From Octopus vulgaris (lineage: Eukaryota), in NCBI GenBank assembly GCA_951406725.2, contig OX597837.1, forward strand, positions 24,180,001 through 24,244,000: a DNA stretch of 64,000 nucleotides, in the 5' to 3' direction. The notes beneath the pieces are model-generated. The model searched no databases. It saw nothing but the letters and a program-made list of their open reading frames with translations, and had not been told where the DNA came from. Each line of letters starts with the position of its first letter. Within the stretch, counting starts at the first letter, position 1. Positions 7,067 to 57,475 of this stretch are shown here, in pieces. The position numbers and the translations under genes were made by a program.

Positions 7067-7247
7067 GCCACTACACACATTTTTTTCTCTCTTTGTTTCT
7101 CTCCTTGTCTATTCTGTATCCCTTTCTGTAGAAGAGCGTAGGCTCGAAACGTAAAATACTTTTTTCTATTCCTGAGCGTTATACTAATACATCTGCTTGT
7201 TTTGTACACCACCTGTCTTCGTCTTTTGTTTTTATCGTAAACTCGCA
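7067..7247 (+). mobile_element. Penelope-like pLTR-type element with hammerhead motif (A6U family), in (TA)n
   Basis: TTT-CTGTAGA-A-GAGC-GTAG-GCTC-GAA-ACGT-A-AAA at 7123-7156; flanked by TA repeats; five further copies in the window. Confidence 0.7.
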
Positions 7248-8734
7248 TATATATATATATATATATATATATATATATATATATATATATATATATATAT
7301 ATATATATATATATATGAAATATAATATACGTGGCCCGTTAGCAATTAAACCTAAAGGCAAATTAATAAACAAGGGTACGAAGTAGTACCAGCATTGCTA
7401 GAAATAGGAGTAAAAAAACAACTCAAATACATATATACTCATACATTCAGAATTGGTGATTCATTGCATAACTACTCAAATGTTCTCGCTATGTCCGATT
7501 CTCGAAGCGTCAAATGTGGAGGAAGGAAAAAGAGAGGGAGAGAAAGAGAGAGAAAACAGATAGACAAAGACAGAGAGAAAGGCAGAGACAGGAAGGGAGG
7601 GAGGAGAACACACGACTAGGAAACGAAAGGAAGAGAAAGAAGAAAGAGGCGGAAGAAAGCAAGGTGTGTACGAAGTTATGTTAAAAATAAGGCAAGAATG
7701 TAAGACAAGAGTCGCAGTTCTTTACAAGAAAGTAAACAATGTTTCGATCAATCAAGTAAAGTTTAGAAAAATAATCTTGAATGGCATATTTTGGGAATTA
7801 AGATATTACGTGTGTGTGTGTGTGTGTGTGTGTGTGTGTGTGTGTGTGTGTGTAAGTGTATGCATACTGATGTGTGTGCATGCGCAGGTGTGGCCGCATT
7901 GTAAGAAGTTCCTCAATCGCATGGCAATGGATTTAGCCCCCACTGCGTGTTACCTTCTGCTATAGCCCCAGGCCAACAACCAAAACTTTTTGTGTTGATT
8001 TGGTAGGCGTAAACTGAAAAAAAACTCGTCATGTGTGTGTGTGTGTGAGTTATACACACACGCACACACATATATATATATATATATATATATATGTATC
8101 GAAGTATGCAGTATTATACATCCATTACGGCTGATCTTATAAATCCGGTTTCACGCAATGGGTTCAACGGAGTGTTAAGTAACAGTCCGGTCATGTACCT
8201 CTGTGCTCTTCAGAGATAGCAGTTATGAAATGAAATATACCCAGTTTTTGACAAAAATACGAATACATATTTTTTCTGACTCATGGATTGCCGACTTACG
8301 GATTATATATGACTAGCAAGGTAAAGCGGCTGACCTCCCCTGTTCGAAGGTTGTAATGGACGCAGGTTCGTGTGTCAAATAGCTAACTAGAGGCGGTGGC
8401 CTCTTGGAGCTAATCAGCGACAGCTTTAGTCTTATTTATAGACTGCCATATTAGTATGGCGATAACTATTAATATATATATATATATATATATATATATA
8501 TATATATATACTTTTATTCATTTACTTATTTCAGTCATTTGACTGCGGCCATGCTCCAGCACCGCCGTTAGTCGAACAAACTGACCCCTGGATTTTTTTT
8601 TGTAAACCTTTGTAAACCTTTGTATATGTTTACACACACACACACATATATATATATATATACATACATACATATATATATATATATATATATATATATA
8701 TATATATATATATATATATATATATAAACCTGGC

Positions 8735-8988
8735 TATTTTCTGTTCCCCAACATGAAAAAACACTTGGCTGGGAAGCGTATCGGACCGATGATGAGGTCA
8801 TATCTGCTGTTGGGGACTTTTGTGAGGATCAGGATGAGCGCTTCTACACTACGGGAATACAAGCGCTGCAACACCGATGGAAGAAGTGTATGGACCGCAG
8901 AAGAGACTATGTCCAAAAGTAAAATACATTTCGTCAAGTTCGACCATTGCATCGTGATCAGCCAATCATCTTTTCAGCCCAGCCTGGT
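8735..8988 (+). mobile_element. Mariner transposase 3' remnant
   Basis: Frameshifted translation [52 protein letters not shown], a typical mariner C-terminus. Confidence 0.85.
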
Positions 8989-9354
8989 ATGTATGTGTAT
9001 GTGTTCTTCCGTTGTAGAGAAAATTCATAACAGAAAAGAATCTGTGAGACCTTACTACATTAAGAAGGCCATTTTGTATGTGTGTGTCTGCATATCGATT
9101 TATTTTGTTGTTTTTCTTAATACAAAATGATAATAATTCCCGACAGGATACAACTAATTAGCAATCATTTGCAATGTTTCTTTAATAGGTTGATTAGCAT
9201 ATTTCACCCTTCAGGCTTTTAATCTTCTTAAGAAGAAATTGCAAACAAGTGGATTAAGGGGTCTATTAAAAAACACGTTAGCATTTTAGCACGAGAAACT
9301 CGAGTAGTAATTAACCACAATTAAATACAATCTAACAATACAAACAATAATAAT

Positions 9355-10085
9355 GGTTTCAAATTTTGGTACAAGGCCAGTAATTTCAGAGGAGGGCTAA
9401 GTCGATTACATCGACCGCAGTATACAACTGGTACTTACTTTATCGACCCCAAAACGATGTAAGGCAAAGTCGACCTCGGCGGAATAATGATAATGATAAT
9501 CCTTTCTACTAAAGGTACAAGGCTAGAAATTTTGGGAGGGGGATTAAGTCGATTACATCGACCCCAGCGTTTCACTGATACTTAATTTATCGATCCCAAA
9601 ACGATGAAAGGCAAAGTCGACCTCTGTGGAACAATAATAATGATAATCCTTTCTACTAAAGGTACAAGGCCTGACATTTTCAGAGAGGGACTAAGTCGAT
9701 TACATCGACCCCAATGTTTCACTGATACTTAATTTATCGACCCCGAAAGGGGCGGAATTTGAACTCAAAATGTAAAGACGGACGAAATGCCGCTTAGCAT
9801 TTCGTCCGGTGTACTAACGATTCTGTCAGCTCGTCGCCTTTCAGTTGTACTAATATTAATACGCCTTAAGGTGGCAAGCTGGCAGAATGGTTAGCACATC
9901 GGGGCAAAAGGCATAGTGGTATTTCGTCTGTCTTCACGTTCTGAGTTCAAATTCCGCCGAGATTGATTTTGCTTTTCATCCCTTTCGGGGTCAGTAAAAT
10001 AAGTATCGGTTGGCCATTGGGGTTGATGTAATTAATCTATCCCTCTCCAGAAATTGCTGGCCTCGTGCCGAAATTTGAAGCCATG
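9355..10085. mobile_element. Cluster of SINE family B copies (minus 9355-9840, plus 9867-10085)
   Basis: Shared Nin/Deu-like domain TTTGCCTTTCATCCTTTCGGGGTCGATAAATTAAGTACCAG and B-box-like GAGTTCAAATTCC. Confidence 0.8.
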
Positions 10086-10239
10086 ATTATTAAAAGACAC
10101 TTTCCTCTTAGGTGAAGCCCACTTGGAAAAGAAAGTGAAAGTGGAGAGGGAAGTGCAACCTCCCAGTGAATTTGTGGAAAGTTGGATGACTGGAAAAAAT
10201 GGTTCGGGTGGGTGGACCTTCTCTGAACATGCTTTCTGT

Positions 10240-55468: not shown

Positions 55469-56003
55469 CCGTATTTTAACGTGTATAAGGAACACCCTAA
55501 TTTGGGGGGGCTTAAAATTTGGAATAAAGGTGTTGTACGGGATTATAATACTATTCATGTATAAGAAGCTCTCATATTTTTAAACCTAATTTTTGGCAAA
55601 AAAGGGTTCCTTATACACGTTGAAATCTCTATGTATATAAAGCTGAAGTTGTCTGTGTGTGGCAGGTTTTGTAACCTTCAACTAACACTATCTCCTCCGA
55701 GACTCTGCGGCGCAAGTTGACCAAAATTGAGAGTATGATAGAAGAAGGCTTGCTCTTCCTTCCGTAGACGAAAAAATTCAAATCGGACCATATTAACACC
55801 AAAAATTATTTACATCAAAAAGGTGCTTTTTTCTATGAAAATTCCTATTCTTTACGATTTTTTGATTGCTGTGTCGCCATTTCTCGGTGTATTTCAACCA
55901 GAAAAATGTTCACTTTAAAGAGAATAACAAACTACATAATGCAAATCCAATTCTAAAGGGTCGAAACAAACCCGAGCAACGACGGGCGATACTGCTAGTA
56001 TGG
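55469..56003. mobile_element. Pogo/Tigger-like MITE with a Helitron inserted in its right TIR
   Basis: TA|CCGTATTTTAACGTGTATAAGGAAC ... GTTCCTTATACACGTTGAAA[insert]TATGG|TA; partial inverted copy at 54948-55053. Confidence 0.8.
55626..55998 (+). mobile_element. Non-autonomous Helitron (second subfamily, same 3' end)
   Basis: A|TC start; CCCGAGCAACGACGGGCGATACTGCTAG|T end. Confidence 0.85.
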
Positions 56004-56304
56004 TATATATTGGATTTAAATTTTGACACAAGCCTAGCAAGTTCGGGAGAAGGGTTAAGTCGATTACATAAACCCCAGTTCTCTACAGGTACTTATTTTA
56101 TCGACCCGAAAAGATGAAAGACAAAGTTGACCTTGGCTGAATTATGAACTCAGAACGTAAAGGCGGACGAAATGCTGCCAAGCATTTTGCCCGACGTACT
56201 AACGATTCTGCAAGCTCTCTTTATATATATATATATATATATATATATATATATATATATATACAGAGAGAGAGAGAGAGAGAGAGAGAGAGAAAGAGGA
56301 GAGA

Positions 56305-56640
56305 GAGAAAGAATTCACGACAAAAAACAAATGACGAAGACTGGTGGTGTAGAAAACAAACAGATGTATTAGTACAACACTCGGGAATTGAAAGAAAGTA
56401 TTTAACGTTTCGAACCTATGCTCTTCCACAGAAAAGAACACAGAAAGAAACAAGAAGAGAAAAAATGTGTGTAATGGCTGCTGGTCTATCATGGCGAATG
56501 CTGGACAGAAGGGTCACACAGGAGAGCTAAGTAGTAGGGGAGATAACAAAGTAGTAGTGATCCCAAAACGAAAGTGCGCGTGTGTGTAAGAGAGTACGTA
56601 TGTGCGTGTGAAAGAGGGCTGGTAATCTTGACGTATGCGT
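56305..56640 (-). mobile_element. A6U-hammerhead Penelope-like element (longer copy)
   Basis: Motif at 56401-56434: CTGTGGA-A-GAGC-ATAG-GTTC-GAA-ACGT-T-AAA. Confidence 0.65.
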
Positions 56641-57342
56641 GTGTGTATATATATATTCTTTTCTACTCTAGGCACAAGGCCCGAAATTTGCAGGGAGGAG
56701 GCCGGTCGATTAGATCGACTCCAGTACGCAACTGGTGCTTAATTTATCGACTCCAAAAGAATGAAAGGCAAAGTCAATCTCGGCGGAATTTGAACTCAGA
56801 ACGTAAAGACAGGCGAAATACCGGTAAGCATTTTGCCCAGCGTTTGAACGTTTCTGCCAGCTCGCCATATATATATATATATTTATATATTGACACAACT
56901 TGACGGCAAAAATTAATGTTACTGATGTTAAGATCACAAGATAGCGATAAGATTGGTTGATGAATGTGACTGCCATAACTGTTAAAATCAGCATAGTACA
57001 GTAGATCTGATCTGTCTTACGTATCTACAACAATACACACTGTGTTTTCTTGTTTGTGCCCACGTAAAACCTATCCGTTTCATATATCTTCTGAGATTCC
57101 CATAATTTATTTCTTAAATACATTTGTTTTAGTTTTATTTCCTAAGCTTTCCTTTGAAAACAACACAGAGGACAATCGTGGGTGTTTTGTAAAATGTTAA
57201 TTAGCTTTGAATTTTACATTTCAGAAGAATTATGTAGACGAACGAAACTTTTTTTATATATATATATATATATATATATATATATATATATATATATATA
57301 TATATATATATATATATATATATATATATATATATATATATA

Positions 57343-57475
57343 GGGAGAATTCACAAAAAAAAAACAAAAGACGAAGACAAGTGGCGTAGACAACAAACAG
57401 ATGTATTAGTTTAACGCTCGGGTAGTGAAGAAGACTTTAACGTTTCGAGCCTAGGCTCTTCCACAGAAAGGAACA
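57343..57475 (-). mobile_element. A6U-hammerhead Penelope-like element
   Basis: Motif at 57435-57470: CTTT-CTGTGGA-A-GAGC-CTAG-GCTC-GAA-ACGT-T-AAAG. Confidence 0.7.

Follow-up and report, generated by a model that had tools for sequence, protein, structure and literature searches.

The window analysed here, a 64,000-nt stretch of the Octopus vulgaris genome (positions 24,180,001 to 24,244,000 of contig OX597837.1, GenBank assembly GCA_951406725.2; our contig C24), contains six dispersed repeats, each with a minimal hammerhead motif in which core position 6, normally A, is U (CUG-U-N-GA). The repeats lead back to a Penelope-like element (PLE) that encodes its own reverse transcriptase (RT) and carries the same motif in its pseudo-long terminal repeats (pLTRs), and they represent a known element class with a new core variant under selection. 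We see about an even chance for a fuller reading, in which the window repeats are clipped 3' ends of this autonomous PLE and its A6U hammerhead would still be a slow ribozyme, assisted by dimerization or by protein.

The parent element

The first-pass annotation of this DNA proposed looking for an autonomous partner with an RT, a GIY-YIG nuclease, and the same pLTR, and walking the copies upstream led to one. A protein search returned 13,201 candidate loci, and about 110 of the 150 scored have one identical score, a sign of a recent burst. Twenty candidates, selected for long open frames, were fetched. CUGUUGA terminates all 20; a second U6 motif lies about 4.5 kb upstream in 15 of them, giving partial-tandem pLTRs (14 tandem pairs plus locus L139, which has three motifs); and an open reading frame (ORF) intact from the ATG through the nuclease is found in 11, with a mean identity of 99.3%. 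These U6 motifs in the tandem pLTRs of a coding element bear out the suggested origin of the repeats in Penelope pLTR hammerheads. The suggestion that the family amplified with U6 already present also holds, since U6 is found in 72 of 74 copies sampled through their flanks as well as in the 20 long-ORF loci. Neither strand of the 4,470-nt unit contains CUGANGA, and the unit has no second, canonical hammerhead.

The element has a single frame of 1,078 codons with RT, Cys linker, and C-terminal GIY-YIG, on which Pfam RVT_1 matches above the cut-off (E 1.3e-7) and Pfam GIY-YIG below it (E 0.0065). In the translation, a DKG motif precedes the RT core, the GIY-YIG domain has two internal Cys with His residues downstream, and the linker, C-x4-C-x2-C at about residues 835-843, is of the Neptune-type CX2-5CxxC form between RT and endonuclease (EN). 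The closest outside proteins, 53-63% identical and unnamed or uncharacterised, share this architecture. On its predicted domain order, we read the parent as a canonical EN+ PLE with a Neptune/Nematis linker. It is likely of Neptune type, with the proviso that Nematis has this linker as well (Craig et al. 2021, PMC8557442; we draw on parts of this source, as of the other papers cited by accession). In the full-length copy L125 (6550-6895), the frame lacks a stop right after the nuclease and continues for about 115 codons into a pyrimidine-rich tract that differs in length and frame among copies.

Conservation of the motif across subfamilies

Copies were sampled with a 19-nt anchor 55-65 nt downstream of the motif (21,541 matches), which avoids selection on the motif itself; about the first 90 anchor matches on contig C1 were fetched, so the sample comes from one contig end. 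Among the 74 anchored copies that bear the motif, C3, U4, G5, G8, and A9 are each kept in 72-74; position 7 is U in 29, A in 22, C in 17, and G in 6; and position 17 is A in 61, U in 11, and C and G in one each. CpG transitions are the commonest of the other changes, with G16.2 to A in 10 copies and an AUAG form of loop II in eight. G17 and C17 together account for 407 of 18,928 U6 matches genome-wide (2.2%), which is a background level.

Two rows were dropped before clustering (one duplicate, one mis-registered deletion), and subfamilies were clustered on flank columns only, with a cluster number that varies with the threshold. Subfamily majorities differ at 0-1 of 31 constrained columns and at 10-35 of 85 flank columns (12-41%), with Fisher p of 0.0015, 0.009, 0.038, 5e-5, and 2e-5 at five thresholds; the motif is thus better conserved than its flanks, which puts this point on firmer ground than the first-pass annotation could. 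The lone constrained-column change between majorities retains a G-U pair. Positions 7 and 17 differ between cluster majorities, and position 6 does so only if the oldest group clusters.

A tree built from flanks only (111 rows, 147 columns) is a ladder along which position 7 runs U, C, G, A, C, U, about five N7 changes, and position 17 runs A, U, A, U. This tree is unrooted and poorly resolved, with many open forks and an outgroup that joins on a long branch, and the direction of the ladder is judged from the lengths of terminal branches and from the presence of A6 in the PLE consensus. Across about seven successive subfamilies U6 is fixed, each of the four bases has occurred at position 7, and position 17 alternated between A and U. 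At four-fold sites of the ORF, a copy with the G7 flank and the youngest subfamily differ by 0.32 (134 sites; 0.116 at second codon positions), and the difference for the oldest A6 copies is 0.44-0.52 (33-52 sites). Even at a four-fold divergence of 0.2 after decay, some 6 of the 31 motif columns should have changed, with P of about 0.001 for none.

In a motif-selected sample of 138 copies, the stem II pairs are formed in 136-138 and stem I pairs 1-4 in 120-138; stem I is usually 4-5 bp long, not 3. The 2.4-1.4 pair of stem I is C-G in the U6 family and G-C or G-U in a canonical sister family, a compensatory change. Stem II has the G10.1-C11.1 pair and the extra nucleotide before it, and G12, A13, A14, A15.1, the palindromic 15.1-16.1, U16.1, and a non-G H17 are all present, so that the predicted motif fits the published consensus of minimal hammerhead ribozymes (min-HHRs) except at position 6. 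Because the motif columns are kept relative to flanks and four-fold sites, and because of the compensatory change in stem I, these comparisons argue that the fold has been under purifying selection since A6 became U.

The word YGAGCG, 25-35 nt 3' of the motif (7175-7183 in the window), is conserved in both the U6 and the A6 short-stem families. Pairing of this word with the 3' strand of stem II is possible and would be preserved by its C/U variation.

Copies in the window

The U6 copies and their A6-type relatives in the window are as follows.

7065..7247, plus strand: 5'-truncated 3' end of the U6 PLE, A7 subfamily, with (TA)n from 7248; hammerhead at 7122-7157, C3 at 7126, U6 at 7129, H17 (A) at 7153.
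14609..14825, minus strand: 3' end of a sister family with a CUGACGA core (A6) and a 3-nt UCC loop; C3 at 14740.
14824..15005, minus strand: decayed Penelope-type RT fragment adjoining the canonical sister copy.
18639..18849, minus strand: truncated 3' end, U7/A17 subfamily, 92.5% to full-length L125; hammerhead at 18740-18777, C3 at 18772, U6 at 18769, H17 (A) at 18745.
20496..20740, minus strand: truncated 3' end, U7/U17 group (youngest), 93.8% to L125; hammerhead at 20627-20664, C3 at 20659, U6 at 20656, H17 (U) at 20632.
33118..33296, minus strand: truncated 3' end, A7 subfamily; hammerhead at 33215-33250, C3 at 33246, U6 at 33243, H17 (A) at 33219.
About 40750-40845, minus strand: tail-only fragment of an A6-type family, adjoining (TA)n.
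56313..56647, minus strand: truncated 3' end, G7 subfamily; C3 at 56431, U6 at 56428, H17 (U) at 56404.
57343..57477, minus strand: truncated 3' end, G7 subfamily; C3 at 57466, U6 at 57463, H17 (U) at 57439.

The six U6 motifs, all on the minus strand except the one at 7126, lie where the first-pass annotation put them, and all have U at position 6, as it reported. Its count of six was right for the U6 form but incomplete for the family, having overlooked the seventh, canonical A6 relative with C3 at 14740, which serves as an internal control for the U6 variant, and the A6-type tail fragment at about 40750-40845. In coordinate order, position 7 of the six motifs reads A, U, U, A, G, G and H17 reads A, A, U, A, U, U; four copies have GUAG as loop II, while AUAG and CUAG are found once each; and the 56431 copy carries a G10.3-U11.3 wobble. 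All of this had been taken as variation that a hammerhead tolerates. The differences at positions 7 and 17 do mark subfamilies, but the loop II changes and the wobble are single-copy events that probably arose after insertion.

The U6 repeats are dispersed and 130-340 nt long, and they align with the 3' end of a single long element at 73-94% identity. The 20496..20740 copy contains a 31-nt duplication (20507-20569), the 56313..56647 copy has about 216 nt upstream of C3 in common with locus L007 and a (TC)n tract between its motif and TA tract, and the 57343..57477 copy is clipped immediately 5' of stem I. Between the sister copy and the RT fragment (14609-15005, minus strand) the 3' part of the ORF and most of the 3' untranslated region are missing, and this junction is possibly a template switch or a deletion. 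The fragment at 40750-40845 begins no more than 2 nt from where its cleavage site would fall. Only two U6 copies and one A6 copy were found in 200 kb beside the window; the window is thus a local cluster, and this neighbourhood sample was left out of the statistics.

Abundance and canonical relatives

The genome-wide counts reported here cover the 2.80-Gb assembly. The exact U6 pattern has 18,928 matches and its reversed control has none, so the motif is not due to chance. A relaxed minimal-hammerhead pattern has 39,226 matches, at least 18,928 of them U6; among the first 100 listed, we counted by eye 58 U6, 40 A6, and 2 C6. A6 with the same GU-G loop is found in only 186 copies, and of 30 that were inspected, most are single reversions within U6 subfamilies and five share flanks with the oldest group. 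The canonical UCC-loop family makes up the majority of the rows listed among 5,462 non-U6 matches, and a canonical family with a long stem II makes up 25 of the first 100 relaxed matches listed; this abundant family was also seen at L140 (774-810) and on the minus strand of L148. An amplified A6C subfamily was considered and rejected, the C6 copies listed being scattered over all position 7 states and resembling single transitions. Sequence runs under four organism labels contain 78-100% of the sampled words, and in run X4 one contig crosses the motif with zero substitutions, which indicates that U6 is not peculiar to this assembly.

Insertion ends and target site

Insertion ends were measured in 19 long insertions (L139 was left out). 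Their 3' end is fixed at a short TA tract of the unit itself, some 105 nt downstream of H17, with the junction within (TA)n in 18 of the 19, and their 5' junctions are variable, mostly at TA or similar repeats. In the window, a (TA)3+ tract begins 122-168 nt past C3 in all six copies; as background for such proximity, (TA)5+ lies within 180 nt of 13% of random window points. The (TA)n noted at the 3' ends of the repeats is thus present in all six, but it is target-site sequence and not a tail: it flanks insertions on both sides, and the element's own sequence stops at its internal TA tract, where genomic (TA)n takes over. Priming on the internal tract likely accounts for the end point. Of 96 flank-anchored hits, 22 lack a full motif, mostly because they are clipped 3' of it; the short copies in the window are likewise plain 5' truncations. 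At 3040-3070 of L125, the internal TA tract stands at the unit junction and is followed 26 nt on by the word TCACTTT, together resembling the consensus of a TATA box and an initiator; this one tract may double as promoter and priming site.

Does the U6 motif cleave?

In the mechanism that we propose, the nuclease would nick (TA)n and the nick would serve as primer for reverse transcription, which would begin at the TA tract within the element and, when it ended early, leave the short copies of the window. A single A6-to-U change would have occurred near the oldest subfamily. Two motifs would pair via their ACGU palindromes, aided by the element's protein, and would occasionally cleave and re-ligate into a unit-length RNA circle, which the RT could copy more than once round to give an identical pLTR pair. 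Slow cleavage is known for natural A6C cores (kobs under 0.1 per min; PMC3088659), with higher activity in Mn2+ (PMC7151607), metazoan min-HHRs have little activity even when dimeric (PMC4209133), and a lizard PLE hammerhead cleaves only with the element's protein (PMC11167929). The varying positions of the motif, N7 and H17, are those that a hammerhead tolerates, and we count this for retained activity. In the 14 tandem insertions, both repeats share nine substitution variants (eight upstream and one downstream of H17), one-repeat substitutions recur in no two insertions, and the mean distance between repeats is 1.2 within and 3.2 between insertions. The shared variants indicate that both repeats were copied from one template segment. 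This origin fits a ribozyme-closed circle, but template jumping would give the same result. Several further points weigh against activity. CUGA-turn mutants, single and double, had low activity except for a C-G swap in a saturation study of a type III hammerhead (PMC9901934), and for the lizard PLE, PMC11167929 describes hammerhead-dead mutants that inserted normally in vitro and, in the parts drawn on here, no RNA-seq reads ending at the cleavage site. In our data, the cleavage site is the start of none of the 19 long insertions. A first contrast of 5'-truncation junctions gave 30 in the site class and 5 eight bases upstream, but a control for TA microhomology accounts for most of this apparent excess (about 28 of 91 site-class junctions versus about 19 of 65 at a loop TA, counted by eye). 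No later subfamily descends from any of the 186 A6 revertants; selection is therefore not for full activity. Folding predicts that U6 together with U7 would pair across the core and hide the palindrome, with a probability of 0.73 in the 20659 copy and a mean of 0.43 in 27 U7 copies versus 0.0 with A6; this pairing is not predicted with A7 or G7 and so cannot explain U6 throughout. Two further features, loop II and the extra A, are invariant although catalysis on its own does not call for this, and the invariant loop shows that the constraint goes beyond catalysis. On the sequence evidence, we judge activity of the U6 motif to be about evenly balanced.

The same element could instead carry a U6 motif that is dead or negligibly active and kept for protein recognition or palindrome-held RNA pairs, with a role in ribonucleoprotein assembly, RT positioning, or ACGU-held dimers for template jumping. 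This is a serious contender, if somewhat short of an even chance: it suits the slowness of A6 mutants (PMC3088659, PMC7151607, PMC9901934), the dispensability of cleavage for insertion in vitro (PMC11167929), the high copy numbers that Naiad PLEs attain without canonical hammerheads (PMC8557442), the invariant loop II, the lack of any surplus of 5' ends at the site once TA microhomology is allowed for, and the fact that most cDNAs read through the site. However, the tolerated changes are exactly N7 and H17 and G17 was never amplified, which is the tolerance pattern of a catalyst, and G8 and G12 are retained although their role is catalytic, not helical. It is improbable that A6U killed the ribozyme and left a neutral fossil riding on a successful element. 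The usual invariance of A6, the CpG decay inside individual motifs (G16.2 to A in 10 of 74), and the small target of 31 columns would agree with a fossil, but the 0-1 changes in those columns, where 12-41% of flank columns changed and four-fold sites diverged by 0.2 or more, and the roughly five N7 changes along the same ladder already disfavour it. The first-pass annotation also raised a retrozyme-like non-autonomous element, and a retrozyme or SINE-like (short interspersed nuclear element) family mobilised in trans would match the 130-340-nt, non-coding window copies; animal retrozymes have been proposed as PLE pLTR derivatives (bioRxiv 10.64898/2026.07.22.740005). This reading is refuted in the main and has very little chance of being correct, since the copies derive by truncation from an autonomous element that has the same U6 3' end, their 5' ends are variable and continuous into its EN and RT, and they are dispersed, with short tandem monomers absent.

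Returning to the slow-ribozyme reading, a stronger form of it would have A6U as a functional core tuned down, gated by protein and by alternative pairing, that makes a circular RNA template. We regard this form as rather doubtful. If true, PLEs would need rare and regulated rather than fast cleavage, searches requiring CUGANGA would overlook roughly every second minimal hammerhead in genomes of this kind, and the ribozyme would serve one of the genome's most abundant hammerhead-bearing elements.

Other features of the window

Two related repeats from the relaxed scan, at 2063-2090 and 16592-16620 (plus strand), have a UUGAAAA-stem-GAAA pattern that could be a U3-A8 type motif or chance. A stop-free stretch at 47952-48464 (minus strand), judged by eye, reads like the C-terminal zinc-knuckle region of a long interspersed nuclear element ORF2. 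Short tandem arrays of period 147-184 are found at 9368-9748, 17808-18174, 26931-27413, and 48905-49269, and belong to an abundant SINE-like repeat.

Significance and comparison with known systems

Hammerheads are near-universal in canonical PLE clades, slow in vitro, and dispensable in the sole reconstituted insertion assay. The U6 lineage is a natural experiment in which a supposedly invariant base has changed and been kept through about seven subfamilies up to near-identical intact copies, and the canonical A6 sister families in the same genome are built-in controls. If the U6 motif cleaves, A6U joins the natural catalytic cores; if it does not, the fold is selected for a non-catalytic job. 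With U6 in at least 18,928 of 39,226 relaxed matches, standard descriptors undercount minimal hammerheads. Rfam scans detected neither a hammerhead nor any other ribozyme: 201 bases of L125 had no match with E as high as 10, the 4,470-nt unit had none, and none was among the 150 window matches listed of 220. A literature search found no natural A6U hammerhead among the results listed, its reach not extending to Lunse et al. 2017 (PMC5785218) on small PLE hammerhead variants, to one supplement of PMC4209133, or to the supplements of the eLife mutagenesis study.

The closest relatives of the motif are the min-HHRs of metazoan PLEs (Cervera and De la Pena 2014, PMC4209133), which like it lie in pLTRs and have a short stem I, an additional nucleotide between A9 and G10.1, a G10.1-C11.1 pair, and a palindromic 15.1-16.1 in place of stem III, and of which truncated elements have likewise left thousands of single copies scattered over the genome. 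The min-HHR consensus reads CUGANGAH, with U3-A8 as the core variant named in the parts of that source drawn on, whereas here U6 comes with no compensating change, in a lineage that is intact and recently amplified. Because the core C3 U4 G5 A6 N7 G8 A9 is broken at A6, we file the motif as a derivative of the min-HHRs, not a standard member. Like Neptune/Nematis-type EN+ PLEs (PMC8557442), the parent has one ORF in which the RT is followed by a C-terminal GIY-YIG, together with a Cys linker motif, pLTRs in partial tandem, a preference for (TA)n targets, and a hammerhead near the 3' end; it differs from them in the non-canonical core and the frame run-on of about 115 codons. The A6C hammerhead of phage Bcep176 (PMC3088659, PMC7151607) is likewise a natural position 6 change with the rest of the core intact; it has C6 at a single locus and a measured low activity that is better in Mn2+, whereas U6 is known here from sequence alone, in about 19,000 copies of a eukaryotic retroelement. 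PAc Poseidon of the green anole (PMC11167929) is also a PLE with a pLTR hammerhead, internal RT initiation, and an AT-rich target, but its hammerhead overlaps the ORF start, its cleavage is protein-aided, and its RT starts in an AC-rich stem loop, whereas here the ATG follows the U6 motif at a distance of about 750 nt and the internal TA tract is where insertions stop. Animal (non-long terminal repeat) retrozymes, finally, are short non-coding tandem monomers, in contrast to the U6 copies, which are dispersed ends of a coding element.

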